Below, piece after piece: positions 14,523 to 39,553 of a stretch of 44,890 bases of DNA. Where the stretch lies: NCBI GenBank assembly GCA_023251895.1, contig JAHEXX010000002.1:668-45557 (forward strand). The letters run 5' to 3'. A model generated the notes under the pieces. The model was given only the letters and a program-made list of their open reading frames with translations, did no database searches and was not told the DNA's origin. Source of the stretch: a bacterium (GTDB lineage Bacteria > Actinomycetota > UBA4738 > HRBIN12). Within the stretch, counting starts at the first letter, position 1. Every line of letters begins with the position of its first letter. A program made the position numbers and the translations under genes.

Positions 14523-14533
<11 letters not shown>
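14105..14533 (+). CDS. nuoA: NADH:quinone oxidoreductase subunit A
   Basis: Starts 12 nt after the reductase stop. 3 TM helices. APYECGNEP and [11 protein letters not shown] signatures. Acidic C-terminal tail. Confidence 0.95.
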
Positions 14534-15037
<504 letters not shown>

Positions 15038-15041
<4 letters not shown>

Positions 15042-16800: not shown

Positions 16801-17366
16801 TGGCGGTGCTGTCGCCCGAGCTCCGCGGGGAGGCCGAGCGCATCAAGGCCCGTTACCCGGCGGGGCGGGAGCGGTCCGCGATGCTGCCGCTGCTGTACCT
16901 CGTGCAATCGGTGGAGGGCCGAGTGACCCGCGATGGCCTCCGGGAGGTCGCGGATGTCCTAGGCCTGAAGACCGCCGAGGTCGAGGCGGTGGCCAGCTTC
17001 TACTCGATGCTCCGGCTACGTCCCACCGGGGCGCACGTGGTCTCGGTGTGCACGAACCTGGCGTGCGCGCTCCGGGGCGCCAAGGAAGTCTACGCGGCGG
17101 CGCACGATGCCATCGGGTCGCACGCGGAGGAGATGACCGAGGACGGGCTGCTCACCCTGCACGAGGAGGAGTGCCTCGGCGCGTGCGACGCCGCGCCGGT
17201 CGTGCAGGTCGACTTCGCCAACCACGACCGGGTCACGCCCGAGCGGATGCGGGAGCTGATCGAGGCCCTCCGCCGGGGGGAGGTCTCGGAGCCTTCGGCG
17301 GGCCGGGCTCCCCGGGACTTCAAGGAAGCGTCATGGATCCTCGCCGGGCTGGGGGACGGGGCGTGA
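16800..17366 (+). CDS. nuoE: NADH:quinone oxidoreductase subunit E (24 kDa, 2Fe-2S)
   Basis: ATG 16800 overlaps the nuoD stop. MLPLLYLVQ motif. Cys pattern VCTNLAC ... EECLGACDAAP. Confidence 0.93.
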   Translation: MAVLSPELRGEAERIKARYPAGRERSAMLPLLYLVQSVEGRVTRDGLREVADVLGLKTAEVEAVASFYSMLRLRPTGAHVVSVCTNLACALRGAKEVYAAAHDAIGSHAEEMTEDGLLTLHEEECLGACDAAPVVQVDFANHDRVTPERMRELIEALRRGEVSEPSAGRAPRDFKEASWILAGLGDGA

Positions 17367-22247: not shown

Positions 22248-22741
22248 GCCGGGGGGAGCAGCGGCCCCAGGATTTCCTGGGAGGGTTGGCGGCGGCAGCC
22301 CGAGGCATGGGCGTGGTGATCAAGCAGGTGTTCCGGCCCGACGTGACCGAGCGGTACCCCCAGCAGATCGACGAGCCGCCTCCGCGCTCACACATCGGCC
22401 GCCACCTCTTGAACCGGTACGAGAACGGCTTGGAGAAGTGCATCGGCTGCGAACTGTGCGCGTACGCGTGTCCGGCCGACGCGATCTGGGTGGAAGGGGC
22501 CGACAACGACCCGGAGAACCCCGTCTCCCCCGGGGAGCGGCACGCCAAGGACTACCAGATCAACTACCTGCGCTGCATCATGTGCGGCCTGTGCGTGGAG
22601 GCCTGCCCCACCCGGGCCCTCACGATGACGCACGCGTACGAGATGGCGTTCACCTCGCGGGAGGACGCCATCTTCACCAAGGAACAGTTGCTCGAGCCGC
22701 CGCTTCCCCTCGGAACCGCCCCGGGGACGCAGGAGGGGTAG
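22244..22741 (+). CDS. nuoI: NADH:quinone oxidoreductase subunit I (2x[4Fe-4S])
   Basis: GTG 22244 overlaps the nuoH stop. [12 protein letters not shown] and [12 protein letters not shown]. 165 aa. Confidence 0.95.
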
Positions 22742-22743
22742 GC

Positions 22744-23324
<581 letters not shown>

Positions 23325-23328
<4 letters not shown>

Positions 23329-23630
23329 GGGTGCCCATCGCCGACTTCCTCGTGCTGTCCGGGATCCTGTTCGCCATCGGCACGGCCGGGGTCCTGGTCC
23401 GCAGGAACGCCCTGCTGATCTTCATGTCGGTTGAGCTCCAGCTGAATGCGGTCAACCTCACGCTCGTCGCGTTCTCCCGCATGCGCAACGAGCTGAACGG
23501 GCAGGTGTTGGCCTTCTTCTCCATGGTCGTGGCGGCGGCCGAGGTCGTGGTGGGTTTGGCCATCATCGTTTCGATGTACCGGCGGCGAGGCAGCGTGAAC
23601 GTCGACGACGCGAGCGTCCTGAGGGGGTGA
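23325..23630 (+). CDS. nuoK: NADH:quinone oxidoreductase subunit K
   Basis: ATG overlaps the nuoJ stop (ATGA). 101 aa, 3 TM helices, conserved membrane Glu residues in [10 protein letters not shown] and [11 protein letters not shown]. Confidence 0.93.
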
Positions 23631-23634
23631 CCGG

Positions 23635-25506
23635 GTGCTCGATCTGATATGGCTCGTCCCGGCGCTCCCCCTGGCGGGGGCGGCGATCAACCTGTTCTTC
23701 GGCAAGCGGTTGGGGAAGGCCGCCGGTGCGCTCGCCGCCGCGGTGATGACCGCGGCGTTCGTGATCGCCGTCTTCGTGGTGGCCGAGCTGCTCAAGCTCC
23801 CGGCCGAGCAACGGGCGCACGTCCGGCATCTGTGGGAATGGATCGCGTCGGGGTCGTTCCGGGTCGGCGTGGACCTCTTGGTCGATCCGCTCTCGGCCAC
23901 CATGATCCTGGTGGTGACAGGGGTCGGCACGCTGATCCACATCTACTCGATCGGCTACATGGACGGGGACCCCCGGTACGGCCGGTTCTTCTCGTACCTC
24001 AACCTGTTCGTGTTCTTCATGCTGATGCTGGTCCTGGCCCAGAACTACCTGCTGCTGTACCTGGGCTGGGAGGGCGTCGGCCTGTGCTCGTACCTGCTGA
24101 TCGGGTTCTGGTACGAGCGCGCGTCGGCGGCCAACGCCGCGAAGAAGGCCTTCATCACCACCCGCATCGGCGACACGGGCATGATGATCGGGATCGCGCT
24201 GATCTTCGTGAAGCTCGGCACGCTCGACTTCGGGCAGGTACTCGGGCCGGGCGCAGGGCGGCTCTCGGAGGGAGCGGCCACCGCGATCGCGCTGCTGCTG
24301 TTCGCCGGCGCGGTCGGCAAGTCGGCGCAGTTCCCGCTCCACGTGTGGCTCCCGGACGCGATGGAGGGCCCCACGCCGGTGTCCGCCCTGATCCACGCCG
24401 CGACGATGGTGACGGCCGGCGTGTACCTGGTGGCTCGCTCGCACGCACTGTTCGAGGCGTCGACGGTGGCGCTGCCAATCGTGCTGGTCGTGGGGTTGGC
24501 CACCGCCCTGTACGCGGCCCTCGCCTCGATCGGGCAGTTCGACATCAAACGCGCACTGGCCTACTCCACGATGAGCCAGTTGGGGTTCATGTTCTTCGCC
24601 GCTGGGATGGGCTACTACGCCGGCGCGATGCTGCTGCTCGTGTGTCACGCGTTCTACAAGGCGTTGCTCTTCCTCTCGGCGGGGAGCGTGATGCACGGAA
24701 CCGGCGATGAGGCCGACATGCGGAACATGGGTGGCCTGGCCCGGGAGATGCCGGCGACCACCGCCGCCTTCACGGTCGGGGCCCTGGCTTTGGCCGGCAT
24801 CCCACCGCTGGCCGGGTTCTTCGCCAAGGACCACATCGTGAGCTTCGCCGCCACCAGCGGGCGCGACCTCGCGTGGGTTTTGGCGAGCGTGGGCGCGTTC
24901 CTGTCGGCCCTGTACATCACCCGGCCGGTGTTCATGGCCTTCTTCGGGACCAGGCGAGCGGAGGGCCACGCGCACGAGTCTCCCCCGGTCATGACCGTCC
25001 CCCTCGCCCTCCTGGCTGTGGGGGCGGTGGGCGCCGGCGTGCTTGGCCTGTCCGTCGCGGGGGGGTTCCTGGCTCGGTTCCTGGAGCCGTCCGTCGGAAC
25101 GGCCGCGGAGGGGGCGGTCGGTCCGTCCGAGGCGGTCCTGGTGGGGATCTCTGTGGCCCTGGCCATCCTGGCCGTGGCCGTGGCCTGGTACGTCTGGGGG
25201 TCCGGCCGCGTGGACTGGCTGGGCATCCCCGAGCGGCACCCGGGGCTGGCCGGCGCGCTGGGCACCGCGTTCTACATCAACGCGCTCTACTCGTGGCTGG
25301 TGCAGTTCCCCGGCAAGGGCTTCGGCCGGCTGGTGGCCCGAGGCGACGAGCAGGTCATCGACGGCATGGTGAACGATGTGGGCGCGGGCGTGGAACGTCT
25401 GTCGCGGGTCGCTCCGAGGTGGGAGACGGGTAGGGTTCGCAGCTACGCGCTCTCGTTCGCCGTGGGTGCCTTCGCCGTCCTCGTCGTTCTGGGCTTGAGG
25501 CTCTGA
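23635..25506 (+). CDS. nuoL: NADH:quinone oxidoreductase subunit L (antiporter-like)
   Basis: GTG start 4 nt after the nuoK stop. 623 aa. [47 protein letters not shown]. Confidence 0.95.
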   Translation: MLDLIWLVPALPLAGAAINLFFGKRLGKAAGALAAAVMTAAFVIAVFVVAELLKLPAEQRAHVRHLWEWIASGSFRVGVDLLVDPLSATMILVVTGVGTLIHIYSIGYMDGDPRYGRFFSYLNLFVFFMLMLVLAQNYLLLYLGWEGVGLCSYLLIGFWYERASAANAAKKAFITTRIGDTGMMIGIALIFVKLGTLDFGQVLGPGAGRLSEGAATAIALLLFAGAVGKSAQFPLHVWLPDAMEGPTPVSALIHAATMVTAGVYLVARSHALFEASTVALPIVLVVGLATALYAALASIGQFDIKRALAYSTMSQLGFMFFAAGMGYYAGAMLLLVCHAFYKALLFLSAGSVMHGTGDEADMRNMGGLAREMPATTAAFTVGALALAGIPPLAGFFAKDHIVSFAATSGRDLAWVLASVGAFLSALYITRPVFMAFFGTRRAEGHAHESPPVMTVPLALLAVGAVGAGVLGLSVAGGFLARFLEPSVGTAAEGAVGPSEAVLVGISVALAILAVAVAWYVWGSGRVDWLGIPERHPGLAGALGTAFYINALYSWLVQFPGKGFGRLVARGDEQVIDGMVNDVGAGVERLSRVAPRWETGRVRSYALSFAVGAFAVLVVLGLRL

Positions 25507-25507
25507 G

Positions 25508-27016
25508 ATGCCTTGGCTCTCGGTCACCATCTTCCTGCCGCTGATCGGGGTGCCGATCCTGCTTTTCTGGCGGGGGATCCCCGACCCGGTGGCAAGGGGG
25601 GTCGCGCTGCTCGCGTCCACGACGACGTTCGTCGTCTCGCTGGGGCTGCTCGGTGCGTTCGACGCCTCCACGCCCGGCTACCAGCTCGTGGAGCGGGCCA
25701 CGTGGGTGAGGTCCATCGGTCTCCAGTACCTGGTCGGGGTCGACGGCGTGAGCCTGTTCCTGGTGATGCTCACCACGCTCATCATCCCCATCGGCATCCT
25801 GGCCTCCGGATCGGTCACGCGGAACGTCCGGCTGTTCATGGCATGCTCGCTGCTGCTCGAGACCGCGGTGCTGGGCGCTTTCCTGTCGCTCGACCTTCTG
25901 CTGTTCTTCGTCTTCTTCGAGGCGCTGCTGTTCCCCATGTACCTCCTGATCGGGATGTGGGGCTCGGGCCGCCGCGTGTACGCCGCCGTGAAGTTCTTCC
26001 TGTTCACGATGTTCGGTTCGGCCTTCCTGCTGGTCGCGATCCTGTTCCTGTTCTCGCGAGCGAGCGGCCAGTTCGGGCGGGGCACGTTCGAGCTGACGAA
26101 GCTCCAGCACCTGTCGCTGCCGCCGGCGACCGAGCGGTGGCTGTTCCTCGCGTTCTTCATCGCCTTCGCCGTGAAGGTGCCGCTCGTCCCGCTGCACACG
26201 TGGCTGCCAGACGCCCACACGGAGGCTCCCACGAAGGGCTCGATCATCCTTGCGGCCCTCCTTCTGAAGACCGGCACCTACGGGCTGATCCGGTTCAACC
26301 TGGTCCTGTTCCCCGAGGCCTCGCACTACTTCGCGAACGCCGTGTCGATCCTCGCGCTCGTCGGGATCATCTACGGCGCGATCGTGGCCATGATGCAGAG
26401 TGATCTGAAGCGGCTGATCGCCTACTCGTCGGTGTCCCACCTGGGGTTCGTCGTCCTGGGCATCTTCGCCTTCACGCAGCAGGGCATGTCGGGGGGCGTC
26501 CTGCAGATGGTGAACCACGGGATATCGACCGGTGCGCTGTTCCTGCTGGTCGGACTGCTGTACGACCGAACCCACACGCGGCAGCTGGACGAGCTCGGCG
26601 GGCTGGCAGACATCACGCCGCTCCTGGCCGGCTCGTTCATGGTGGCCGCCCTGTCCTCGATCGGACTGCCCGGCCTCAACAACTTCGTGGGGGAGTTCCT
26701 GGTGATCCTGGGTACTTTCACGGCAAACCGGGCCTTCGGCGTGCTCGCCGCCACCGGCGTGGTGCTGGGCGCGATCTATCTACTGTGGGCGTACCAGCGG
26801 ACCTGGCACGGGCCCCCCAACGAGCGGTACAGGGGCCTGGCCGACCTGTCCCGTGTGGAGATCACCGCGGTCGCCCCGCTGCTCGTGGTGATGCTCGTGC
26901 TGGGCGTGTACCCGAAGCTGCTGTTGGACCGGATCAACCCAACCACCAACAAGATCGTGCAGCAGGTCCAGGTGGTGCGGCACGACCAACGGCTCCTGGC
27001 TCGGGGAGGCGGCTGA
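25508..27016 (+). CDS. nuoM: NADH:quinone oxidoreductase subunit M (antiporter-like)
   Basis: ATG 1 nt after the nuoL stop. 502 aa. FAVKVPLVPLHTWLPDAHTEAPT motif. Confidence 0.95.
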   Translation: MPWLSVTIFLPLIGVPILLFWRGIPDPVARGVALLASTTTFVVSLGLLGAFDASTPGYQLVERATWVRSIGLQYLVGVDGVSLFLVMLTTLIIPIGILASGSVTRNVRLFMACSLLLETAVLGAFLSLDLLLFFVFFEALLFPMYLLIGMWGSGRRVYAAVKFFLFTMFGSAFLLVAILFLFSRASGQFGRGTFELTKLQHLSLPPATERWLFLAFFIAFAVKVPLVPLHTWLPDAHTEAPTKGSIILAALLLKTGTYGLIRFNLVLFPEASHYFANAVSILALVGIIYGAIVAMMQSDLKRLIAYSSVSHLGFVVLGIFAFTQQGMSGGVLQMVNHGISTGALFLLVGLLYDRTHTRQLDELGGLADITPLLAGSFMVAALSSIGLPGLNNFVGEFLVILGTFTANRAFGVLAATGVVLGAIYLLWAYQRTWHGPPNERYRGLADLSRVEITAVAPLLVVMLVLGVYPKLLLDRINPTTNKIVQQVQVVRHDQRLLARGGG

Positions 27017-27017
27017 C

Positions 27018-28466
27018 GTGATCCCCGCGCCGCATCTGGACTTCCTGCCGCTCCTGCCGGAGCTGATCGTGGCCGGCGTGGCGGTGGCGCTGCTGGTCGG
27101 CGGCGCCCTGGTGGGCCGGCCGTCGCAGACGGTCCTGCTTCTCCTCACGCTGGCCGGCCTGATCGCCGCCGCGGCCGCCTCCGCGTACCTGTGGAACTGG
27201 GACGGCCCGGGCCGCGTGCTGGGAGAGATGATCCAGGCCGACCGGCTGGCAGTCGTGTCCCGGATGATCCTCCTGGGCGTCGGGGCGTTCGGAGCGCTGT
27301 ACGGCCATCACTACTTCGCTCGCACCGGGGTGGCCCGGATGGAGTTCTACCCGTTGCTGCTGCTGGCGGTGTCCGGCATGACGCTCCTGGTGGCCTCGGC
27401 CGATCTCATCGTGGTGTTCCTGGCCCTGGAGATCCTGTCGCTCGCGCTGTACATCCTGGTGGCGCTGTCTTTCCGCATGGCCTCCGCCGAGGCCTCCATG
27501 AAGTACTTCCTGCTCGGCGCGTTCTCCTCGGCGTTCTTCCTGTACGGCCTGGCCATGGCGTACGGTGCCGCCGGGACGACGAAGATCGACGGCATCGCGC
27601 TCGCGCTGTCGGGCCGCACCGGGAGCCAGCCCCTGGCCCTGGCCGCCGTGGGCCTCCTGCTGATCGGGTTCGGGTTCAAGGTGTCGGTCGTGCCGTTCCA
27701 CATGTGGACCCCCGACGTCTACCAGGGCGCCCCGACGTCGGTGACGGCGTTCATGGCGGCGGGGACCAAGGTGGCCGCGTTCACGGCGCTGATCCGAGTG
27801 CTGGACGTCTCGTTCCAGCCGCTCACGTGGGACTGGCGGCCGGCGGTCTGGGCGCTGGCGGCGGCCAGCATGGTCCTGGGGAGCCTTCTGGCCATCGCGC
27901 AGACCGACCTCAAGCGCCTGCTGGGGTACTCGAGCATCGCGCACGCCGGGTTCATCCTCACCGGGCTGATCGCCACCGACGGGGCGGGAATCGCCGCGGT
28001 GACCTTCTACCTCGTGGCCTACTCGGTCACGGTCCTGGGGGCGTTCGGCACCGTGATGCTGGCCTCCGGGGGGATCCGGGAACGAACGTCCTTCGACTCT
28101 TTCAGGGGCCTGGCCGGGCGGAGCCCCATGCTGGCCGGCCTGCTGACGCTGTTCCTGCTGTCGCTCGCCGGTATCCCGCCGACCGTGGGCTTCATCGCCA
28201 AAGCCGGCGTGTTCGGATCCGCCATCCGCGCCGGGTTCTGGCCGCTCGCGCTGATCGGCGTGCTGGCCAGCGTCGTCGGTGCCTTCTTCTACCTGCGGGT
28301 CATCGTGCTGATGTACATGGAGGAGCCGCAGGCCGAGCTGGAGCCCGAGGGGGCCGCGCTGCCCGGGGCCGCGCTGGCGCTGGCCGCGGGCCTCACCCTG
28401 GTGCTTGGGGTGTTCCCGCAGATCATCCTCCCGGTCCTGGAGAAGGCGGCGATCCTCCGGTGGTGA
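27018..28466 (+). CDS. nuoN: NADH:quinone oxidoreductase subunit N (antiporter-like)
   Basis: GTG 1 nt after the nuoM stop. 482 aa. FKVSVVPFHMWTPDVYQGAPTSVTAFM motif. Confidence 0.95.
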   Translation: MIPAPHLDFLPLLPELIVAGVAVALLVGGALVGRPSQTVLLLLTLAGLIAAAAASAYLWNWDGPGRVLGEMIQADRLAVVSRMILLGVGAFGALYGHHYFARTGVARMEFYPLLLLAVSGMTLLVASADLIVVFLALEILSLALYILVALSFRMASAEASMKYFLLGAFSSAFFLYGLAMAYGAAGTTKIDGIALALSGRTGSQPLALAAVGLLLIGFGFKVSVVPFHMWTPDVYQGAPTSVTAFMAAGTKVAAFTALIRVLDVSFQPLTWDWRPAVWALAAASMVLGSLLAIAQTDLKRLLGYSSIAHAGFILTGLIATDGAGIAAVTFYLVAYSVTVLGAFGTVMLASGGIRERTSFDSFRGLAGRSPMLAGLLTLFLLSLAGIPPTVGFIAKAGVFGSAIRAGFWPLALIGVLASVVGAFFYLRVIVLMYMEEPQAELEPEGAALPGAALALAAGLTLVLGVFPQIILPVLEKAAILRW

Positions 28467-28509
28467 GCCCCGTTCGCCGCCCATGCCGCGCCCCGATAGG
28501 CTTCTCCGC

Positions 28510-29544
28510 ATGAGCAGGCGCGTGATCCCCGGCCTGGAAGCACCCGACGCCATCCTGGAGGCCGACATCCGCGCCCGCCTGGACCAGGTCGAGGGGGCAC
28601 TGGAGAAGGCCGTCCGGGCCGACTCGGACCTCCTGGCCGAGACCTCCTCGTACCTCCTGGCCGCGGGGGGGAAGCGGTTCCGGCCCATGTTGGTGCTGCT
28701 GTCCGGGTACTTCGGCGATCCCGCCGACCCTCGGTTGATCCCGGGCTCGGTGGCCATCGAGCTCGTGCACCTGGCCACGCTGTACCACGACGACGTCATC
28801 GACGAGGCGGATGCCCGGCGGGGCGCGCCGTCGGTGAACGCCCGATGGGACAACACCGTGGCCATCCTGACCGGCGACTACCTGTTCGCCCGGGCCTCGG
28901 AGATCTCGACGGAACTCGGCACCGAGGTGTGCCGCTTGCTCGCCCGGACCATCGCCACGCTGTGCGATGGCCAGATCCGGGAAGTGGAGTCCTCCGGGAA
29001 CGTCGACCAGGAGGAGGAGTCGTACATGGAGATCATCCGCCGCAAGACCGGCGCGCTGATCGCCACGTCGTGCCGGCTGGGTGCGCTGCTCTCGGACACG
29101 CCGATGGACCAGGTCGACGTCCTGGAGGAGTTCGGGGAAGCCCTGGGCATGGCGTTCCAGCTGTCCGACGACATCATGGACGTGACCGCCAGCCAGATGG
29201 AACTGGGCAAGGAGCCCGGCGTGGACCTCAGGGAGGGCGTCTACACGCTCCCGGTGCTGCACGCGCTGCATGAGGGAGAACGCCGGGAGGAGCTGTCCCG
29301 GCTGCTCCGGCAGGGTCCGCCGGACGGGGAGCGCTTGGACCGAGCCCTCGAGATCGTCCGGGCCGACGGCAGCCTCGCCCACGCCAGAGCCGCGGTCGCC
29401 CGGGAGGTCCACCGGGGAACCGAGCTCGCCGAGCGGCTGCCTGCCGGGCCGGCCCGCACCGCGCTGGTCCAGTTGGCAACGTTCCTGGCGGTACGGTGCG
29501 GTGCCGCGCAGGCCCCCCATACAACGATAGAATCCCCGGCTTGA
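28510..29544 (+). CDS. Long-chain trans-polyprenyl diphosphate synthase (hepta/octa/nonaprenyl type, quinone tail)
   Basis: ATG 28510 ([13 protein letters not shown]...) inside track ORF 28405..29544. First Asp-rich motif [15 protein letters not shown] with small Ala at -5 (HLATLYHDD). Second motif FQLSDDIMD. Confidence 0.85.
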
Positions 29545-29558
29545 GAATGCTTTCACAA
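29541..29558. promoter_or_regulatory. Rex-like operator TTGAGAA-TGCT-TTCACAA (one mismatch to TTGTGAAnnnnTTCACAA), overlapping the synthase stop and the nuoA2 start codon
   Basis: Left arm 29541-29547, spacer 29548-29551, right arm 29552-29558. The nuoA2 ATG (29547-29549) lies inside the site. A TAGAAT -10-like hexamer sits at 29528-29533. Confidence 0.45.
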
Positions 29559-29930
29559 GCGTCCGCCGAGACCTACTACCAGTCCTACGCCGTCGTCCTG
29601 GCCGTCCTCGCGGCGGGCGTGCTGCTGGTGGGGGTGGCCTTCCTCGCCGCCCGGCTGATCGCCCCCCACCGGCCCCTGCCGGCCAAGCTCACCACCTACG
29701 AATGCGGCATCGACCCGGTGGGCCAGGGCTGGTCCCAGAGCCAGGTCCGCTACTACATCTACGGGTTCCTGTTCGTGATCTTCGACGTCGAGGCAGTGTT
29801 CCTGTTCCCCTGGGCGCGGATCTTCGAGCGCCTCGGCTACCAGGCCGTGGTCGAGATGGGCATCTTCATCGGGATCCTGGCGGTTGGCCTCCTGTACGCC
29901 TGGCGCAAGGGGGTGCTGAAGTGGGTCTGA
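29547..29930 (+). CDS. nuoA2: Complex-I subunit A paralog
   Basis: ATG 29547 lies 2 nt after the preceding stop. [10 protein letters not shown] and [11 protein letters not shown] signatures. 127 aa. Start lies inside track ORF 29496..29930. Confidence 0.88.
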
Positions 29931-30436
29931 TCACCGAGAAGACCCCTCTGGCCAGCATCCAGCCGGTCAAGTTCCTCCTGAACTGGGGCCGCCGGTGGTC
30001 GCTGTGGGTCATGAACTTCGGCCTGGCTTGCTGCGCCATCGAGTTCATCGCCGCCTCCACCTCCAAGAACGACTTCATCCGGTTCGGGGTCATCCCATTC
30101 GCCCACGGACCCCGGCAGGCCGACCTGCTGGTCGTGGCCGGGACCCTGACCGACAAGATGGCTCCTGCCCTCAAGCGGGTGTACGACCAGATGCCTGACC
30201 CCAAGTACGTGATCTCCTTCGGTTCCTGCTCCAACTGCGGCGGGCCGTACTGGGACTCGTACTCGGTGACCAAGGGCGTCGACCAGATCGTCCCCGTGGA
30301 CGTGTACGTGCCCGGCTGCCCGCCCCGGCCAGAGGCGCTCCTGCACGGGATCATCAAGCTCCAGGAGAAGATCTCCGGCGAGGACATCAGGGAGAAGTTC
30401 AGTGGCAGGCTCACCCAACCCGCTGCCACCTCCTGA
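29921..30436 (+). CDS. nuoB2: Complex-I subunit B paralog (N2-type cluster ligands intact)
   Basis: GTG 29921 overlaps the nuoA2 end. [19 protein letters not shown] and PGCPPRPE retain all four Cys. Start lies inside track ORF 29702..30436. Confidence 0.9.
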
Positions 30437-30926
30437 CATCGAGGCCCGCCTGCGGGCCCAGTTCGGCGACGACATCATGGGATTCGAGGACCAGTACGGG
30501 CACGCGGTGGCCACCGTCCCGCGCGAGCGGTACCGGGAGATCGCCCGGTTCCTGCGCGACGAGCCCGAGTTGGCTTTCGACTACTGCGACTTCGTGGGCG
30601 GCGTTGACTTCCAGGACCGGGGCCTCGAGATCGTGGCCCACCTGTTCTCCACGACCCACCACCACAACGTCCGGCTGAAGACCCGGTTCCCCCAGGACGA
30701 CGCTCGCTGTCCCACCCTGTCGGACCTGTTCCCCACGACCAACTGGCACGAGCGCGAGGCCGCCGAGATGTTCGGCATCGAGTTCGAGGGCCATCCACAG
30801 CCGGTCAAGCTCCTGCTCTCCGAGCCTTTCGAGGGCCACCCGCTCCGCAAGGACTTCCCCCTCATGTCGCGCGAAGCGAAGCCGTGGCCGGGCGCTGTCG
30901 AAGGCGAGGAGGAAGAGGAAGAGTGA
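30402..30926 (+). CDS. nuoC2: Complex-I subunit C (30 kDa) paralog with poly-Glu C-terminus
   Basis: [40 protein letters not shown] signature. GTG 30402 preceded by GGGAGAAG (35-nt overlap with nuoB2; start uncertain). Ends GEEEEEE. Confidence 0.85.
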
Positions 30927-31936
30927 TCGCCCAGGCCGGGGCCAGCTTCGTCAACGACCTCTTCAACAACTTCTGGGTCGTCCTGGTCATCAAGGCGGTC
31001 CTGGTCCTGGGGTTCTTCCTGGTGGCGCCGCTCGTGGTGGGCTACATGGAACACAAGGTCCTGGCCCACATGCAGGCCCGCCTGGGCCCCTGGTATGCGG
31101 GGCGGTTCCACGGCTGGGCCCAGCTCGTCGCGGACGGCGTGAAGTTCGTCCAGAAGGAGGACGTGATCCCCGAGGCCGCCGACCGGTCGGTGTTCTCGCT
31201 GGCCCCGGCCGTCGTGATGATTCCCTACATCGTCACGGTGGTCGTCATCCCGTTCAGCCACACGATCTACGCCGAGAACCTGGACATCGGGATCTTCTTC
31301 GTTCTGGCGATGTCGTCGGTCTCGGTGATCGGCGTGCTGATGGCTGGTTGGTCGTCGGCCAACAAGTTCTCGCTGATCGGGGCGCTGCGGGCAGCCGCGC
31401 AGCTGATCGCCTACGAGCTGCCGTTGGTGCTGGCCGCGGCGGCGGTCGTGATGCAGAACGGAACGCTCTCGCTGATCGGCATCTCGGAGTCCCAGAGCCA
31501 CGTGTGGAACGTGGCCTGGCAGCCCATCGGGTTCCTGATCTTCCTCGTCGCGTCGCTGGCCGAGCTCACGCGTCCCCCCTTCGACATGCCGGTCGCGGAC
31601 TCGGAGATCATCTTCGGTGCCTACACCGAGTACACGGGGCTGAAGTTCGCGTTCTTCCTGCTGGCCGAGTACGGCGGCATCGTGGTTCTGTCGGCCGTCG
31701 CGTCGGTGCTGTACCTGGGCGGGTACCTCGGGCCACCGGTGGTTGCGTCGCTCCTGCCGGCGCCGATCTGGATGGCCGGGAAGATCGGTGCGCTATCGTT
31801 CTTCGTCATCTGGCTGCGGGCCACCTACCCGCGGCTCCGCGAGGATCAGCTCCAGCGGTTCTCGTGGCTGGCGCTGGTCCCCCTGGCGCTGCTGAACGTC
31901 ATGGTCGTGGCGATCGTGAAGATCGCGGTCAAGTAA
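30923..31936 (+). CDS. nuoH2: Complex-I subunit H (ND1) paralog
   Basis: GTG 30923 overlaps the nuoC2 stop (GTGA). [15 protein letters not shown] and [28 protein letters not shown] signatures. 337 aa. Confidence 0.9.
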
Positions 31937-31949
31937 AGGAGAGGGACGG

Positions 31950-32828
31950 ATGGCGGTCGACGCGGACGAGGTACGCCGGGAGGGGCAGCCGTCCATCCCC
32001 GGCCTTGGGCTGCTCAAAGGCCTGACGGTCACCCTGAAGACGATGTTGCGCCCCGCCGTCACGCAGCGATACCCGGATGTGAAACCCGACCTCCCGGCCC
32101 GCACCCGGGGCGTCATCGCGCTGAAGGAGGCGAACTGCACGGTCTGCTACAAGTGCGCCCGCGAATGCCCGGACTGGTGCATCTACATCGACGCCCACAA
32201 GGAAACGCACGAACCCGCCGGCGGCGGCAAGGGGCGGTCGGCCAAGGTGCTCGACCGGTTCGCCATCGATTACGCGCTGTGCATGTACTGCGGCATCTGC
32301 GTGGAGGTCTGCCCCTTCGACGCGCTGTTCTGGAGCCCCGAGTTCGAGTACGCGGAATACGAGGTCGACGAGCTGATCCACGAGAAGGAGAAGCTGGAGG
32401 AATGGACCTACAAGGTCCTTCCCCCACCTCCACTCGAAGACGGCGCCGAACCACCGGCCGAATCGTCCGGGTCACAGAGCGCCGGGGTTCCGGGGGTCGA
32501 GACTGCTCCCCCCGGAGCTGCAGCCGCCACCGTCGCAGCGACCTCCGTACCGGGGGTCCGCAGCGTCTCTCCCCCCGAAACCCCGGCGCCCGCCGCGCCC
32601 CCGGCGGCGGCTCCGGCTGAAGCAGTGGCTGTCTCGACCCCCGAGGCCCCGGCGCTCAAGGCCCAGCCGGCTCCAAGCACGGAGCACAAAGAAGTCAGCC
32701 TTGACCAGGAGACGTTCGATCGGGTCTTGGCGGAACTGCTGGACAAGGGCACCGACCGCCGGGTGGCCGAGGGCCAGGCCCGGCGGGCCGCCATGATCGC
32801 GGCCCGCAAGAAGGCGGAGGAGGGCTAA
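31950..32828 (+). CDS. nuoI2: Complex-I subunit I paralog (2x[4Fe-4S]) with about 135-aa Pro/Ala-rich linker plus charged helical C-terminal module
   Basis: ATG preceded by [22 protein letters not shown] and [12 protein letters not shown]. 292 aa versus 165 aa for NuoI of the first operon. Confidence 0.88.
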
Positions 32829-32832
32829 CCGG

Positions 32833-33333
32833 GTGACGGGGCAGGAATACGCGTTCGTCGTGCTGGCCCTGGTCGGGACGGTCGGTGCGGTCCGCCTGGT
32901 CACGGCCAAGAACGTCGTGCACGCCGCCCTCTACCTCGTGGTGACCCTGGCCATGGTCGGGTCGATCTACCTGGTCCTTGGCGCGGAGTTCGTGGGCTGG
33001 GTCCAGATCCTGATCTACGTGGGCGCCATCGTGATCCTGTTCCTGTTCGGCCTGATGCTGACCAAGGCCCCCATCGGCCGGGAGAGCCTGGACAACCAGC
33101 AGCGCGGTCTGGCTCTGCTGGTTGCCCTGGCCGTGCTGGCCGGGCTGGTGTTCTTGATCCAGGACGCGTTCCACTGGGGCGACCGCAAGATGAACCTGGT
33201 CCACAACACCACCGGTGAGGTGGGCCGCTCAATCTTCCAGCACTACGTGCTGCCCTTCGAGGCCGTGTCGTTCATCCTGCTCGCCGCGCTGATCGGCGCG
33301 GTGGTTCTGGCACGCAGGGAGGAACGCGAGTGA
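32833..33333 (+). CDS. nuoJ2: Complex-I subunit J paralog
   Basis: GTG 4 nt after the nuoI2 stop. Hydrophobic ND6-like protein ([28 protein letters not shown]). 166 aa. Confidence 0.85.
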
Positions 33334-33632
33334 TCCGCCTGCCCCTCGTCCTTTTCTTCTCGGCCGTCCTGTTCTCGACGGGTGTGTACGGCGTGCTGGC
33401 CCGGCGGAACGGGGTGCTGGTCCTGATGTCGATCGAGCTGATGCTGAACGCCGTCAACGTGAACCTGGTCGCCTTCTCCCAGTACGTCAGGGACATCGGG
33501 GGTCAGGTGTTCGCGCTGTTCGTGATCGCCGTGGCCGCGGCAGAGGTGGGCATCGGGCTGGCCATCGTGATCCTGATCTTCCGCAATCGCGAGTCCATCA
33601 ACGTGGATGAGGTGAGTCTCCTTAAGTGGTAG
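33330..33632 (+). CDS. nuoK2: Complex-I subunit K paralog
   Basis: GTG overlaps the nuoJ2 stop (GTGA). 100 aa. Both membrane Glu retained ([21 protein letters not shown]). 49 of 97 aligned residues identical to NuoK by manual alignment. Confidence 0.9.
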
Positions 33633-35602
33633 GGGCATCGGAGATCGCGAGCGCCGTGGGGCCGGGGTTCCTTCCTTGGACCTGGGTCATCGCCGTGCTG
33701 CCGCTCGCCTCCGCGGCCCTGATCCTGTTCTTCGGCAAGCGCACTCCCGGCAAGGGCCCCGTCTACGGCATCGCCGCGGTGGGCACGGGGTGGGTGCTGT
33801 CGCTCGTCGTGCTGTGGCATTTCGTGCAGGGCGGTGGCCCCCTCGAGCGGTCGGTGGCGTGGTTCCAGGTCGGGCCCCTCCACATGGAGCTGGGGGAGCT
33901 GGTCGACGGCCTGACCGCCGTGATGCTGGTCGTGGTCACATCGATCTCGCTCGCCGTGCAGGTGTACTCGCTCGGGTACATGAAGGGCGACGCCCGGTAC
34001 ACCTGGTTCTACGTCGCGCTCTCGCTGTTCACGGCGGCGATGCTGAACGTGGTCACGGCCAACAACCTGTTCCAGCTCCTCGTCGGGTGGGAGGTCATGG
34101 GCCTGTGCTCCTACCTGCTGATCGGGCACTGGTGGGAGGAGAAGGTCAACTCCAACGCGGCGATCAAGGCGTTCATCACGACCCGCATCGGCGACGTGCC
34201 GTTCCTGTTCGGCATCTTCGCGCTGACTTTCGCCACCGGCTTCACGACCTCGAACATCCGCGTGATCGCCGAGCGGATCTCATCCGGCGAGGTGTCCACG
34301 ATGCTGGTCGCGGCGGCAGCGCTCCTGCTGTTCGGGGGCACGATGGGGAAATCGGCTCAGTTCCCGCTGCACGTGTGGCTCCCCGATGCCATGCAGGGCC
34401 CCACCCCCGTATCGGCCCTGATCCACGCCGCCACCATGGTCACCGCCGGCGTGTACCTGGTCGGGCGGCTGTTCGACGTGTTCGTCCACGCGAACGCCCA
34501 CGTCCTGCAGTACGTCGGCGTGATCGGGGGCATCACGATGCTGGGGGCCGCCCTGCTCGCCTTCGTGCAGGACGACATCAAACGGGTGCTCGCGTACTCA
34601 ACCATCTCCCAGCTCGCCTACATGGTCGCCGGGATGTCGATGGGGCCGGCCGGGCGGACGGCCGGATTCTTCCACCTGTTCACGCACGCCTTCTTCAAGG
34701 CCCTGCTGTTCCTCGGCGCGGGCTCGGTGATCCACTCCGCGCATTCCAACAACATGAGCGAGATGGGCGGGCTGAGGAAGAACATGCCGGTCACCTTCTG
34801 GACCTTCGCAATCGGGGCCGCCGCCCTGGCCGGCGTGTTCCCGCTCGCCGGGTTCTGGTCCAAGGACGAGCTGCTGACGGTGGCCCAGGAGAATGGGCAC
34901 CCGGTGCTGTTCGTCGTCCTGCTGGGGACCGCACTGCTGACGGCGTTCTACATGACCCGGGCCGTGTGGATGACGTTCTTCGGCGAGTACCGGGGCCAGG
35001 GGCACCCGCACGAGTCCCCGGTCTCCATGACGGGTCCCCTGGTCGCACTGGCCGCCGCCTCGGCCGGGGTCGGGTTCTTGGGGGCGCCCCAGCTCGGCGC
35101 GGTGTTCGGCAAGTGGGTGTTCTACCAGGAGGCCGAGAAGGCCGTCTTCGTCCCTTGGGTCGCGCTGGCGTCCACCGCCGCGGCCCTGTTCGGGATCCTG
35201 GCCGGCTATTCCCTCTACAAGAGGTACCGGGAGCCGGATCCCCTTCGCGCCTACGCCGGCGCCGTCTACGGCGTACTTGAGAACAAGTACTACATGGACG
35301 ACTTCTACATGCGCTGGATCATCAGGCCGATCCAGTACCCGGTGGCGGTCGCCGTCAACTGGTCCAACCAGCGGATCCTGGACGGTGCGGTCAACGGCGT
35401 GGCCGTCGTCACCCGGGCATCCGCATGGGTCGTGAACCTGTTCGACCAGCGGGTCGTGGACGGTGCAGTCAACGAGGCCGCGGAGATCACCGGCGAAACC
35501 GGCGGCGTCCTGCGGGCCCTTCAAACGGGGAACGTCCAGTGGTACGCGGCCCTTCTGTTCATCGGCGTCGTGGTGGCGGCCGTCCTGATCACGAGAGCGT
35601 AA
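33626..35602 (+). CDS. nuoL2: Complex-I subunit L paralog (antiporter-like)
   Basis: 658 aa. [48 protein letters not shown]. The GTG 33626 start overlapping the nuoK2 end is uncertain by a few codons. Confidence 0.9.
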
Positions 35603-35618
35603 GAGGGGAGAACACCGG

Positions 35619-37166
35619 ATGAGTGGGTGGGAGCAATCGGCGATCACCATCGCGACCTTCCTGCCGCTGGCGGGAGCACTGGTGATCGCGATGGTCCCCA
35701 GGGAGAAGGAACGGGTCGTCCGCGGCCTGGGGATCGTCTTCACCGGGGCTGCCTTCCTGGTCTCGATCGTCATCGCGCTCGGCTTCGACTACGGGGTCGG
35801 CTCGAAGCTCCAGTTCGAGCTGGACGTGAGATGGATCGCCGCGATCAACGCCCGGTACCACGTGGGCGTCGACGGCATCAGCCTGCCGCTGTACGTGCTG
35901 ACCTTCGCGCTGTCGTTCCTCTGTGCCATCTACACGTGGCGGTTCGTGCCGAGCCCCGGGAAGACCAAGGCCTTCCTGGCCCTCATGCTCCTGCTCGAGA
36001 CCGGGATGGCCGGCACGTTCATCGCCTTCGACCTCATCCTGTTCTTCATCTTCTGGGAGATGGTCCTGGTGCCCATGTACTTCCTGATCGCGATCTGGGG
36101 GAGCGCGAACCGCGAGTACGCGGCCATCAAGTTCTTCCTGTACACGGTGTTCGGGAGCGTGTTCATGCTCCTGGGCTTCCTGGGGATGTACTTCCGTTCG
36201 GACGTGGCCGGGCACCACTCCTTCGACCTCCTCCGGCTGACGAACTTCGCCGCCGCCGGCGGGTTCTCGCACGGGTTCCAGCTGGTGGTGTTCGGCGCCG
36301 TGGGCTTGGGCCTGGCCATCAAGGTGCCGATGTGGCCGTTCCACACGTGGCTCCCCGATGCCCACACCGAGGCCCCCACGGTCGGCTCGGTGCTGCTGGC
36401 CGGGGTCCTGCTGAAGATGGGGACGTACGGATTCATCCGGATCGCCTTGCCGGTCCTGCCCTACGGGGCCCAGAAGTTCGCTCCGTGGATCGGGCTGCTC
36501 GCGGCGATCGCGATCGTCTACGCGGCCCTGGCGTGCCTGGCGCAGAAGGACCTGAAGCGGCTGATCGCGTTCTCCTCGGTGGGGCACATGGGCTTCGTGA
36601 TGCTGGGCATCGCGACGCTGACCTCGATCGGGATCAACGCTGCCATCTTCGGGATGGTCGCCCACGGCCTCATCACCGGGATGCTGTTCTTCCTGGTGGG
36701 GTCCGTGTACGACCGGTACCACACCCGCCAGATCGCCGAGATCGGCGGCGGGATGATGCAGAAGCTCCCGTACCTGGGAGGCGTGCTCGCGTTCGTGTCG
36801 ATCGCCTCGCTGGGGCTGCCCGGCCTGGCCGGCTTCTGGGGCGAGGTCATGGCGCTGCTCTCGTCGTTCAATCCCAGTCATGCCGCCGGGCTGAACACCG
36901 GACTGTTCCGGGGATTCATGGTCGCCGGCGGCATCGGAACCATCATTACCGCCGGCTACTTCCTGTGGATGCTCCAGCGGGTCAACATGGGCACGCTTCC
37001 GGAGAGATGGAAGGAGGCCGCGTTCCCCGACATCGTTGCGGTGGAATGGGTCTCGTGGGTGCCGCTGCTGGTCGGCATCGTGGCGCTGGGGATCTTCCCA
37101 CGGCTGATCTTCGGAGTCACCGACGGGGCCGTGAACGGCCTGCTCCGACTGTTCGGGGCAGCGTGA
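35619..37166 (+). CDS. nuoM2: Complex-I subunit M paralog (antiporter-like)
   Basis: ATG preceded by GAGGGGAG. 515 aa. LAIKVPMWPFHTWLPDAHTEAPT motif. Confidence 0.9.
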   Translation: MSGWEQSAITIATFLPLAGALVIAMVPREKERVVRGLGIVFTGAAFLVSIVIALGFDYGVGSKLQFELDVRWIAAINARYHVGVDGISLPLYVLTFALSFLCAIYTWRFVPSPGKTKAFLALMLLLETGMAGTFIAFDLILFFIFWEMVLVPMYFLIAIWGSANREYAAIKFFLYTVFGSVFMLLGFLGMYFRSDVAGHHSFDLLRLTNFAAAGGFSHGFQLVVFGAVGLGLAIKVPMWPFHTWLPDAHTEAPTVGSVLLAGVLLKMGTYGFIRIALPVLPYGAQKFAPWIGLLAAIAIVYAALACLAQKDLKRLIAFSSVGHMGFVMLGIATLTSIGINAAIFGMVAHGLITGMLFFLVGSVYDRYHTRQIAEIGGGMMQKLPYLGGVLAFVSIASLGLPGLAGFWGEVMALLSSFNPSHAAGLNTGLFRGFMVAGGIGTIITAGYFLWMLQRVNMGTLPERWKEAAFPDIVAVEWVSWVPLLVGIVALGIFPRLIFGVTDGAVNGLLRLFGAA

Positions 37167-37176
37167 GCGAGGCATC

Positions 37177-38631
37177 GTGAACCCGACCATCGACTACCAC
37201 GCGATCCTGCCGGAGCTGATCCTCTCCGGGACGCTAGTCGTCGTGCTGGTGGTCGACGTCTTCTTGCGGCCGCCCCGGAAGTGGTTGGCCATGCCGCTGT
37301 CGTTCGCCGGTGTCCTGGCCGCATTCGTCGCCACGCTCACCCTGATCGGTGCCGACCGTACGACCTTCGGCGGCAGCTACCACGTCGACCCGTTCGCCGT
37401 GCTGTTCAAGGTGTTCTTCCTGTCCGTGGCCATGATCGTGCTGTTCCTGTCGCTTCGGTACTTCCGGGAGGGGCGCTACTACCAGGGCGAGTACTACTTC
37501 TTGCTGCTGTCGTCGGTCCTCGGCTGCGTGATGATGCCGTCGTCCCGGGACCTGCTGATGCTGTTCATCTCGCTCGAGCTGGTCTCGGCCCCGGCGTTCC
37601 TCATCGCGGCCTTCCGCAAGAACGACCCTCGCTCGAACGAGGCCGGCCTGAAGTTCTTTCTGATCGGGGTGCTCTCCTCAGCGGTGATGCTGTACGGGAT
37701 GAGCCTGATCTACGGGGTCACCGGCAGCACGAACCTGTACGAGATCGGAAAGGCGCTGGCCGGCCACCTGGGCGGGCAGGAGACGCTTGCCCTGGCGGCG
37801 ATCCTGTTCGTCGTGACGGGGTTCGCGTTCAAGGTCTCCGCTTTCCCCTTCCAGTTCTGGGCCCCCGACACCTACGAGGGGGCGCCGGTGCCGGTGACCG
37901 CGTTCCTGGCCTCGGCGTCGAAGGCGGCGGGGTTCACCGGCCTCCTGCAGCTGATGTTCGTGGCATTCATCCACCAGGCCGCGTTCTGGGGGCCGGTGTT
38001 CGCGGCGTTCTCGATCTTCACGATGAGCATCGGGAACCTCGTGGCGCTGCAGCAGCGGCAGGCGGTCCGGCTGCTCGCGTACTCGAGCATCGCCCAGGCC
38101 GGGTACATGCTGCTTCCGTTCGCCCTGGCCGGCCACGGGGTCGACAAGGAGGCGTTCGCGGCGGCGGTCACGTACATCCTGATCTACGCGATCATGAACC
38201 TAGGGGCCTTCGCCGTGGTGGTGGCGGTGTCGCGGAAGTCCTCCGCACTGTTGATCGCAGACTTCGCCGGTCTCATGCGGAACGCCCCCCTGCTGGCGTT
38301 GGCCATGACCATCTTCATGGTGTCGCTGGCCGGGGTTCCACCCACGGCGGGGTTCTGGGGCAAGTTCTTCGTGTTCCGGGCCGGCATCGATGCCGGTGGG
38401 ATCGGCATCGCGCTGGCCGTGGTGATGGTGGTGAACTCCGTGATCTCGCTCTTCTACTACCTGGCCATCCCCAGGCAGATGATCCTGGTCGAAGGGCCCG
38501 AGGAGCCGATGCGCTCGCCGGCCCTGGTCACCTTCGTGGCGGCCCTGGCAGCGGCGGCCGTCATCGCGGTGTTCGTCTACCCGGACCTCATCGCCCACTT
38601 CCCGCCGCTCTCGACGCTGGTCGGCAGCTAG
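37177..38631 (+). CDS. nuoN2: Complex-I subunit N paralog (antiporter-like)
   Basis: GTG 10 nt after the nuoM2 stop. 484 aa. FKVSAFPFQFWAPDTYEGAPVPVTAFL motif. Confidence 0.9.
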   Translation: MNPTIDYHAILPELILSGTLVVVLVVDVFLRPPRKWLAMPLSFAGVLAAFVATLTLIGADRTTFGGSYHVDPFAVLFKVFFLSVAMIVLFLSLRYFREGRYYQGEYYFLLLSSVLGCVMMPSSRDLLMLFISLELVSAPAFLIAAFRKNDPRSNEAGLKFFLIGVLSSAVMLYGMSLIYGVTGSTNLYEIGKALAGHLGGQETLALAAILFVVTGFAFKVSAFPFQFWAPDTYEGAPVPVTAFLASASKAAGFTGLLQLMFVAFIHQAAFWGPVFAAFSIFTMSIGNLVALQQRQAVRLLAYSSIAQAGYMLLPFALAGHGVDKEAFAAAVTYILIYAIMNLGAFAVVVAVSRKSSALLIADFAGLMRNAPLLALAMTIFMVSLAGVPPTAGFWGKFFVFRAGIDAGGIGIALAVVMVVNSVISLFYYLAIPRQMILVEGPEEPMRSPALVTFVAALAAAAVIAVFVYPDLIAHFPPLSTLVGS

Positions 38632-38695
38632 GCGTCCGCCCGAACCCTCGTTTCCGGCGGGACGAACTACCCTGTGAAGAAGGAGGGAACCCGAC

Positions 38696-39553
38696 ATGAT
38701 CGGCATCAACCGAGCCAAGACCTGGATCCTCATCGCCGCCATGGGCGGCCTGTTCGTCCTGATCGGGAACCGGCTGTACGGGACGCACGGTGCGTGGACG
38801 TTCCTGTTCATCGCCCTGGCCATCAACTTCGTCCTGTACTGGTACTCGGACAAGATCGCCGTGGCCACGACCCGCTCCAAGCCGGTGACCGAGGCCGAGT
38901 ACCCCGAGCTCTACCGCGTCGTCCGGGAGCTTACCCAGGCCACCGAGATGCCGATGCCACGGATCTTCGTGTCGGAGATGATGCAGCCGAACGCCTTCGC
39001 CACAGGTCGCAACCCCAAGCACGCATCGGTGGCGGTCACGAAGGGCATCCTGCAGATCCTCGATGAGCGGGAGCTCCGCGGCGTCCTGGCCCACGAGCTG
39101 TCCCACGTGGCCAACCACGACATCCTGATCAATTCGATCGCGGCCGGCATCGGGATGAGCATCACGCTGCTCGCCCGGTTCGCGTTCTTCTTCGGCGGCG
39201 ACGACAATCGGGGCGGGAACCCGCTCGCGTTCCTGCTCGCGTGGATCCTGGCTCCCATCGCGGCGGCGATCATCCAGCTCGCCGTGTCCCGCTCGCGCGA
39301 GTACCAGGCGGACGAGTCGGGCGCGCTCCTGTCACACGACCCCCGGGCACTGGCGGGCGCCTTGCGGAAGTTGGATGCCGCCTCCAGGCAGGTCCCCGTG
39401 CCGCCCTCGGTGAGCCCGGCCCAGGCCCACCTGTTCATCGTGAACCCCTTCGCCGGGCGCAACGCGGGGAGGTCGCTGGCGAACCTGTTCTCCACGCACC
39501 CGCCGACGCAGGCCCGCATCGAGCGGCTGGAGGAGCTCGCGGCGCGGATGTAG
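38696..39553 (+). CDS. htpX: Membrane zinc metalloprotease HtpX (M48 family)
   Basis: ATG preceded by GAAGGAGGGA. HELSHVANHD zinc motif, N-terminal TM helices, C-terminal THPPTQARIERL. Confidence 0.92.
   Translation: MIGINRAKTWILIAAMGGLFVLIGNRLYGTHGAWTFLFIALAINFVLYWYSDKIAVATTRSKPVTEAEYPELYRVVRELTQATEMPMPRIFVSEMMQPNAFATGRNPKHASVAVTKGILQILDERELRGVLAHELSHVANHDILINSIAAGIGMSITLLARFAFFFGGDDNRGGNPLAFLLAWILAPIAAAIIQLAVSRSREYQADESGALLSHDPRALAGALRKLDAASRQVPVPPSVSPAQAHLFIVNPFAGRNAGRSLANLFSTHPPTQARIERLEELAARM

Follow-up and report, generated by a model that had tools for sequence, protein, structure and literature searches.

The 44,890-nt stretch of contig JAHEXX010000002.1 analyzed here, which we call the window and number from its first letter, comes from a bacterium of the Actinomycetota and carries, at positions 29547–38631 of the + strand, a second set of complex I genes (nuo2) in addition to a canonical 14-gene nuoA–N operon (nuo1). 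The second set runs nuoA2-B2-C2-H2-I2-J2-K2-L2-M2-N2 and lacks genes for NuoD, E, F and G. Our comparisons suggest that nuo2 probably encodes ten of the eleven subunits of an 11-subunit-type complex I-like enzyme, and that the remaining subunit, NuoD2, would be encoded in trans by the displaced member of a split operon. The cluster is the one already described in other actinomycetes, and most likely not a machine that works without NuoD. What is new here are orthologous clusters that still contain the nuoD2 gene (D2), an orphan D2 gene in Nonomuraea gerenzanensis, and a large family of orphan D2 genes in metagenome-assembled genomes (MAGs) of soil Actinomycetota.

Subunits were called by Pfam and NCBIfam profile searches of the ten open reading frame (ORF) translations. 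Each ORF was assigned to the Nuo subunit for which it is named, and the A, B, C and H–N subunits of the 11-subunit type are thus encoded together (Table 1). The ORFs are intact and coupled, with boundaries that overlap or nearly abut. The nuoA2 ATG lies 2 nt downstream of the stop codon of a polyprenyl synthase gene (PPS), the nuoB2 start is a GTG at 29921 that overlaps the nuoA2 stop by 10 nt, and the letters GTGA at 30923–30926 hold both the nuoC2 stop and the GTG start of nuoH2. An initial annotation of the window, made from its letters alone, had described ten packed genes with open frames and this shared GTGA, and had argued that there was no gene for D, E, F or G and no room for a lost one; all of this was borne out. 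A tblastn search of the six frames of 29301–39000 with the window's own proteins recovered no NuoD, E, F or G (best E = 0.79), and the ten longest alternative-frame ORFs of the interval contained no match to Complex1_49kDa or NiFeSe_Hases. With these four subunits absent, the nuo2 interval does not encode a canonical 14-subunit complex I.

The place from which nuoD2 was lost is revealed by relatives that have kept it. When metagenomes were scanned for a high-G+C GPQHP..HG pattern, 120 contigs were obtained, some of them with nuo2-type clusters in which D is still in place. In locus L155 (L-numbers are the locus labels of this analysis) the order is N1-PPS-A2-B2-C2-D-H2..N2, that is, the window's own context plus D, and loci L168 and L138 are similar. 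In L233, a 237-kb Actinomycetota contig, the called genes run A-B-C-D-H-I-x-J-K-L-M-N-M48, where x is a 126-residue ORF (12838–13218) between nuoI and nuoJ with no Pfam match. The proteins of L233 are 55–77% identical to set 2 of the window (NuoC only 43%) as compared with 29–50% to set 1. Like nuo2, the D2-containing orthologs L155, L168 and L233 are without NuoE, F and G. Because these orthologs hold D between C2 and H2, we conclude that the D-less cluster is a derived form of an 11-subunit operon, nuoA2B2C2D2H2–N2-htpX. The D2 proteins are 39–41% identical to D1 proteins, and an alignment showed that all of them keep GPQHP(S/A)THG and GYMHR, the motifs with the quinone-site His and Tyr, where NuoD1 has GYLHTG instead of the D2-type GYMHR. 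Actinobacterial NuoD1 also contains an insertion of about 30 residues (...HHFKMVTEG), which no D2-type protein has and which Bacillus NuoD lacks too.

Orthology to the nuo2 cluster of cultured actinomycetes was tested through N. gerenzanensis, whose whole chromosome (NZ_LT559118.1, 11.85 Mb) was taken from the PLSDB plasmid collection. This collection files whole actinomycete chromosomes as plasmids (NZ_CP108785.1, 5.73 Mb, is another), which enabled a whole-genome test. A geranylgeranyl reductase gene, nuoA1–N1 and PPS lie at 1.137–1.154 Mb of this chromosome, and nuo2, ending in htpX, lies about 55 kb further, in the order A2, B2-C2-H2, a 3.5-kb insertion and I2..N2-HtpX. The Nonomuraea cluster is broken twice (L082, 1630–7600; chromosome 1,209,283–1,217,363), by an M48-peptidase-like ORF between A2 and B2 and, between H2 and I2, by three unrelated genes encoding a methyltransferase, an AraC regulator and a Ser/Thr kinase. 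Its identity to set 2 of the window is 72.5% for B2, 68% for I2, 65% for K2 and 58% for H2, which makes the two clusters orthologs. NuoB-like matches fall at exactly two places on the chromosome, as do NuoD-like matches, and the second D persists at E ≤ 1e-70. With the L155 D2 protein as the query, the best Nonomuraea match was at 471,073–472,179. The protein encoded there, an ortholog of the in-cluster D2, shares 56% identity with it and 40% with NuoD1. The gene is an orphan located about 740 kb from nuo2, with no second D found within 175 kb around nuo1 and nuo2; its neighbours encode an aminotransferase, an acyltransferase, TerC and a P450, and include no nuo genes. When a rhizobial plasmid NuoD and an alphaproteobacterial NuoD were used as queries, the Nonomuraea second D was absent among the matches listed. 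The next-best PLSDB matches to the L155 D2 protein were Paenibacillus and Bacillus NuoD at 45–46% identity, the closest outside the actinomycete D2 family among the plasmid records searched.

Orphan genes of the same type are present in metagenomes. Contigs L142 and L139 carry D2-type genes without nuo neighbours; the L142 protein is 78% identical to Nonomuraea D2, and the L139 protein is 61% identical to L155 D2 and 58% to Nonomuraea D2. The L139 distances are those expected for the lineage of the window, whose H2 and M2 proteins are about 62% identical to those of L155 and 50–58% identical to those of Nonomuraea. The L139-type family comprises more than 120 clusters at least 86% identical, named "Actinomycetota bacterium", from soil MAGs. 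Its D2 gene is an orphan in every context read (among them JBOGVA010000018.1, DATLZQ010000042.1, DASVPT010000238.1, JBIOYQ010000147.1, DASYTC010000434.1 and several metagenome contigs). In nearly all of these contexts it adjoins a PF02636 methyltransferase gene in convergent orientation, and selA/selB usually flank it on the opposite side. The accessions with orphan D2 belong to the same submission series as those of D-less loci (JBOGVD/G/H/I/K, DATLZM/DATLZP and JBIOXZ). The link between the orphan family and the D-less loci is strong but circumstantial, and by these comparisons the source genome of the window probably has an L139-type D2.

The neighbour of the orphan genes is an observation in its own right. 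In the L139-type family (L139, 613–4002; L210, L211, L212, L215, L224, L228 and L229) nuoD2 almost always stands tail to tail with the PF02636 (Methyltransf_28) gene; this synteny comes from closely related genomes and thus is not independent evidence. PF02636 is the NDUFAF7/MidA family, the one responsible for dimethylation of Arg85 in the mitochondrial NuoD homolog. The corresponding position is Arg in all D2-type proteins (within GYMHR) and Thr in actinobacterial D1 (within GYLHTG).

Published work on Streptomyces describes the same arrangement. The nuo2 gene order there is nuoABCHIJKLMN (PMC8622039), and in S. coelicolor the cluster corresponds to SCO4599–SCO4608 (nuoA2, B2, [C2], H2–N2), with a full nuoA–N operon also present. 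The second cluster has been reported to be expressed as one operon without the NADH-oxidizing (N) module and with nuoD2 encoded elsewhere (PMC3765725, PMC8388888). Its function has been called unclear, with a hybrid machinery involving the canonical operon being suggested (PMC9239103), and its proteins have been detected by proteomics (PMC9739823). The nuo2 of the window has the same order, no N module and a coexisting full nuoA–N operon. In contrast to Streptomyces, it follows directly after nuo1 with only PPS between them, a separation that amounts to 55 kb in Nonomuraea, and an acidic tail of NuoC2 and an optional C-terminal module of NuoI2 are seen only in the lineage of the window. The initial annotation had pointed to truncated nuoA2–N2 clusters followed by htpX in Streptomyces, in agreement with the published parallel, and htpX follows nuo2 here, in Nonomuraea and in the MAGs. 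It had also held that the B-C-I-H assembly lacks a D of its own and hence any established mechanism, and that a dedicated nuoD2 elsewhere would turn the cluster into an ordinary split operon. The former view is not supported in the face of the in-cluster D2 orthologs, the Nonomuraea orphan and the soil-MAG orphan family; a gene of the latter kind exists in relatives, as reported for Streptomyces and shown here for Nonomuraea.

The residues that characterize redox and pumping function are retained in set 2. As read from the translations, NuoB2 keeps all four cysteines of cluster N2, NuoI2 keeps two CxxCxxCxxxCP motifs, and NuoK2 keeps both membrane glutamates, and the claims first made for these three proteins were correct. 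In NuoL2, M2 and N2 the Glu of transmembrane helix (TM) 5, the Lys of TM7 and TM8 and the Lys/Glu of TM12 are all kept, with NuoL2 having His at the TM8 position. The elements of NuoB2, NuoH2 and NuoA2 that line the quinone site (Q site) are canonical. The best PDB matches of NuoB2 are PSST/NuoB subunits of complex I (195 bits), compared with 96–130 bits for MbhJ or HycG; a group 4 [NiFe] hydrogenase is thereby ruled out, since PSST is matched far above the hydrogenase small subunits. An Mrp antiporter is likewise ruled out by the presence of NuoA, C, H, I, J and K. The TM5–6 loop of NuoH2 has the family-specific form PFDMPxADSE, and we considered whether this change is an adaptation to the lack of D. 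This explanation was rejected because D2-containing clusters have the same loop; PFDMPxA(D/E)SE in H2 and KPWPG in C2 are common to D-containing and D-less clusters.

Two features of the proteins are peculiar to the lineage. NuoC2 ends in an acidic poly-Glu tail of 15 residues that is invariant within the lineage; in the D2-containing relatives the protein ends with KPWPGAKEPGE, so the poly-Glu run is lineage-specific. NuoI2 consists of a two-cluster ferredoxin core, a Pro/Ala-rich linker and a basic C-terminal module of about 42 residues. This module is present in about 17 of the 57 species compared, including L002, L007, L008, L012, L021 and L041, and absent in the rest; L012 and L021 have a tandem duplicate. 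It has no Pfam match and no credible match in other identified protein families among the 1.84 billion representatives searched. The search, which was exhaustive, gave 152 matches. Those of the large ones that were tested proved to be spurious matches to ankyrin or Tudor repeats; the others included one NuoI-type ferredoxin protein, one fragment running into NuoJ and several proteins without a family match. The module might be a tethered docking element. We dropped it as a clue to the electron donor, as the search says nothing on partners.

To describe the conservation of nuo2 we used a scan with one genome per species, which gave 181 relatives, from which 80 loci were kept, all of them from uncultured Actinomycetota MAGs. 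The order nuo1-PPS-A2-B2-C2-H2-I2-J2-K2-L2-M2-N2-HtpX was found in nearly every locus that was long enough, and nuo2 lies beside a complete nuo1 in 79 of the 80 loci; a complete nuo1 also accompanies it in the window and in Nonomuraea. None of the 80 loci has a D gene between C2 and H2. The median spacing of C2 and H2 is −4 nt (78 loci), which is the overlap seen in the window, and the median gaps of N1-PPS-A2 are 31 and 27 nt. Set 2 proteins were mostly closer to those of the window than set 1 proteins were, with median identities of 78% and 68%, respectively, for H, 84% and 79% for K, 67% and 62% for L, 79% and 65% for M, and 70% and 62% for N; the values for J were 68% and 69%. The median for NuoB2 was 87%, with NuoB1 not within the loci. 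These values indicate that nuo2 is under purifying selection no weaker than that on nuo1, and about equal for NuoJ. In metagenomes NuoC2 forms a large family of proteins of about 174 residues that are 69–99% identical, with a mean column identity of 83% in the alignment.

Fragmented ORFs are almost confined to long-read MAGs, and nuo1 and nuo2 are hit alike. Many frameshift-split nuo ORFs were seen in the long-read (MFD) MAGs L010, L024, L029, L030, L063, L071, L072, L080 and others. Since the splits occur in these assemblies and damage nuo1 equally, we read them as assembly indels and rejected decay of nuo2 as their cause. The view that the set looks functional is thus upheld by synteny in 80 species-level genomes, the retained motifs and this explanation of the broken ORFs. 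Within the window, set 2 and set 1 proteins are 31–53% identical (33–53% for the quinone (Q) module subunits, 33% for NuoI2 and NuoI1), and in all subunits but NuoC, K and M set 1 resembles a canonical Tsukamurella operon more than it resembles set 2. The Tsukamurella operon came up as a match to NuoC2 in the plasmid collection; it is the canonical 14-gene operon and was usable as a reference only. These identities indicate that set 2 is an ancient paralog or xenolog and not a recent duplicate. For NuoK and NuoK2 we measured 51% identity over 100 residues, close to the 49 of 97 counted by hand in the initial annotation, and the conservation in 80 species supports its description of an old duplicate under selection.

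Taken together, the data are consistent with the following scheme. The ancestral operon would have been nuoA2-B2-C2-D2-H2-I2-J2-K2-L2-M2-N2-htpX, from which nuoD2 would have been cleanly excised between C2 and H2 and become unlinked in this lineage, as in Streptomyces and Nonomuraea. NuoD2 would form with NuoB2, C2, I2 and H2 a normal quinone pocket beside cluster N2. Electrons would enter at the 4Fe-4S pair of NuoI2 and pass via N2 to menaquinone, and the A/H/J/K/L/M/N arm would pump protons. An ordinary Q module and pump are predicted from the motifs of D2, the N2 ligands of NuoB2, the clusters of NuoI2, the canonical loops of A2 and H2 and the complete antiporter-like subunits. By analogy with 11-subunit enzymes, a ferredoxin-type protein is a possible donor, and input through NuoEFG borrowed from nuo1 would be an unlikely alternative. 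The D2 of this genome, the nature of the donor and the pumping activity are points that we infer.

The known 11-subunit enzymes lack NuoEFG, have an unknown electron donor and probably reduce menaquinone, and ferredoxin-type donors are the leading candidates (PMC11238625, PMC3144371). The Bacillus enzyme has the eleven core subunits predicted for Nuo2, and like nuo2 it has canonical Q-module features and no NuoEFG; for 8 of 10 subunits the B. thuringiensis protein gives a higher score with set 2 than with set 1. The window differs from it in that no D gene lies in the operon, and in that the host is an aerobe-type actinomycete whose genes for a complete 14-subunit complex I and for a caa3 oxidase are also in the window. 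The cyanobacterial and chloroplast NDH-1 also has 11 core subunits without NuoEFG and variants built from paralogous subunits, and the best solved-structure match of NuoH2 is NdhA (6hum_A, 228 bits). However, the NDH-1 variants swap only NdhD/NdhF, NdhH is always encoded, nuo2 has no counterpart of the ferredoxin-docking NdhS/V/O, and NuoB2 resembles mitochondrial PSST more than it does NdhK.

One locus bears directly on whether the second set depends on the first. In L041 (JBFMCN010000036.1, 6283–18155) a PNPOx-like gene, a reductase-like gene, PPS and an intact nuoA2–N2 are collinear with the window, but the 14-gene nuo1 is precisely missing between the reductase-like gene and PPS, and htpX is also absent downstream. 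The intact nuo2 of this exceptional locus suggests that Nuo2 is independent of NuoD1 and NuoEFG, unless nuo1 has moved elsewhere.

Several points weigh against a split operon with a trans-encoded NuoD2. There is no nuoD2 in the window; an orphan D2 and a D-less nuo2 were not seen in one same assembly of the lineage among the 12 contigs looked up; no donor gene is linked to nuo2, and nothing in the neighbourhood suggests one; and the nuo1 of L041 may simply have been relocated. In addition, nuo2 lies directly 3' of nuo1 with gaps of about 30 nt and no terminator-like site, so that nuoD1 could be co-transcribed and shared. A hybrid isoform would follow from such sharing: with no nuoD2 here, A2, B2, C2 and H2–N2 would assemble on NuoD1 and probably on NuoE1F1G1, and two isoforms would have the NADH module and the 49-kDa subunit in common. 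The tightly spaced, co-directional nuo1-PPS-nuo2 array in 79 of 80 species and the canonical Q-site-lining elements of B2, H2 and A2 are in line with this idea, which the initial annotation had put forward and which was already in the literature for Streptomyces (PMC9239103). However, the set-2 Q module is only 33–53% identical to that of set 1 and belongs to orthologs of clusters with their own D2, itself only 39–41% identical to D1; L041 keeps nuo2 intact with no adjacent nuo1; and every relative whose whole genome was examined (Nonomuraea, here) or reported (Streptomyces, published) has a second D. Given the D2 genes of the relatives, we consider a hybrid isoform quite unlikely. It is improbable as well that the 25-gene nuoA1–N1-PPS-nuoA2–N2 array is one expression unit without nuoD2, in which a single NuoD1 (plus NuoE1F1G1) serves two sets of B/C/I/H and membrane-arm subunits; if this were true, it would amount to a complex I whose quinone-site scaffold and pump can be exchanged.

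A trans-encoded NuoD2 is also compatible with docking of Nuo2 to the NuoEFG of the first operon, which would make it a second NADH:menaquinone oxidoreductase and not an enzyme using ferredoxin or another donor. Genomes with nuo2 nearly always also have a full nuo1, NuoI2 keeps both clusters and would accept electrons from NuoG, and the cluster has no linked gene for another donor. Yet NuoI2 is only 33% identical to NuoI1, most subunits of set 2 are slightly closer to those of the Bacillus 11-subunit enzyme, from which NuoEFG is missing altogether, D2 proteins are missing the ~30-residue insertion of D1 proteins, and L041 has no adjacent nuo1; NuoEFG docking therefore appears unlikely. The sole observation in favour of an ion-translocating machine that really lacks D, or of a decaying relic, is that neither the cluster nor the window contains D. 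This explanation is at odds with the strong conservation of NuoC, which has no known role other than clasping NuoD, with the retained N2 ligands and quinone-cavity loops of H2 and A2, with purifying selection that is no weaker than on nuo1, with the existence of D2-containing orthologs and orphan D2 genes, and with the transcription and detected proteins of the Streptomyces cluster, and we regard it as highly improbable.

Table 1. Features of the window (positions refer to the whole 44,890-nt stretch).
Feature	Length (residues)	Position	Strand	Evidence or remark
COX15/CtaA–UbiA/CtaB ORF	866	9484–12084	−	joins COX15/CtaA and UbiA/CtaB prenyltransferase domains
canonical nuoA–N operon (nuo1, 14 genes)		~14105–28466	+	separate from nuo2
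nuoD1	 	15541–16797	+	sole NuoD gene of the window; tblastn self-match only
NuoD1 insertion	~30	16570–16680	+	absent from D2-type proteins
polyprenyl synthase (PPS)		28405–29544	+	links nuoN1 and nuoA2; Pfam polyprenyl_synt 1.2e-67
nuoA2	127	29547–29930	+	Pfam Oxidored_q4 1.2e-35; YECG loop motif present
nuoB2	171	29921–30436	+	NCBIfam NuoB 2.6e-67; four N2 cysteines
nuoC2	174	30402–30926	+	Pfam Complex1_30kDa 4e-39; 36% identity to NuoC1
NuoC2 poly-Glu tail	15	30876–30923	+	lineage-specific
nuoH2	337	30923–31936	+	Pfam NADHdh 1.7e-100; above NCBIfam NuoH equivalog cut-off
nuoI2	292	31950–32828	+	NCBIfam NuoI 7e-30 over residues 20–152; both CxxCxxCxxxCP motifs
NuoI2 linker and basic module		32400–32825	+	residues ~150–292
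nuoJ2	166	32833–33333	+	Pfam Oxidored_q3 1.9e-38
nuoK2	100	33330–33632	+	Pfam Oxidored_q2 2.3e-29; both membrane glutamates
nuoL2	658	33626–35602	+	NCBIfam NuoL 1.8e-185, above cut-off; further NuoL profile match 3e-80
nuoM2	515	35619–37166	+	TIGR01972 NDH_I_M 4e-164
nuoN2	484	37177–38631	+	TIGR01770 NDH_I_N 1e-113
htpX-like M48 protease		38696–39553	+	downstream neighbour of nuo2; Pfam Peptidase_M48 9.6e-35

The window as a whole, with a G+C content of about 68%, is a respiratory island. Its genes encode, in order, ResB, a caa3-type oxidase with CtaG, a cupredoxin, a CtaA-CtaB fusion, a polyprenyl synthase, a PNPOx-like protein, a geranylgeranyl-reductase-like protein, nuoA–N, a second PPS, the ten nuo2 subunits and the M48 (HtpX-like) protease. 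The 866-residue ORF adjoins the caa3 oxidase genes and appears to be a fusion of heme A synthase and heme O synthase, or else an over-extended ORF call. A promoter and terminator scan gave nothing above chance and no terminator-like site between nuoN1 and nuoA2; the missing terminator is weak support for co-transcription of nuo1 and nuo2.

If a complex I relative did work without NuoD, the accepted view of how the quinone site is built would no longer stand; the evidence favours a split operon. Many soil Actinomycetota would then have an 11-subunit enzyme without the N module in addition to the canonical complex I. What donates electrons to such enzymes has been asked for a long time, and aerobic actinomycetes may be tractable organisms for this question. 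In several actinomycete lineages nuoD2 appears to have left the operon for different contexts while the ten other genes stayed coupled, which offers a clean case for studying how stoichiometric assembly tolerates the relocation of a gene. Finally, the orphan D2 bears the arginine that is methylated in mitochondria, and in one large lineage its gene lies beside that of a methyltransferase of the NDUFAF7/MidA family.

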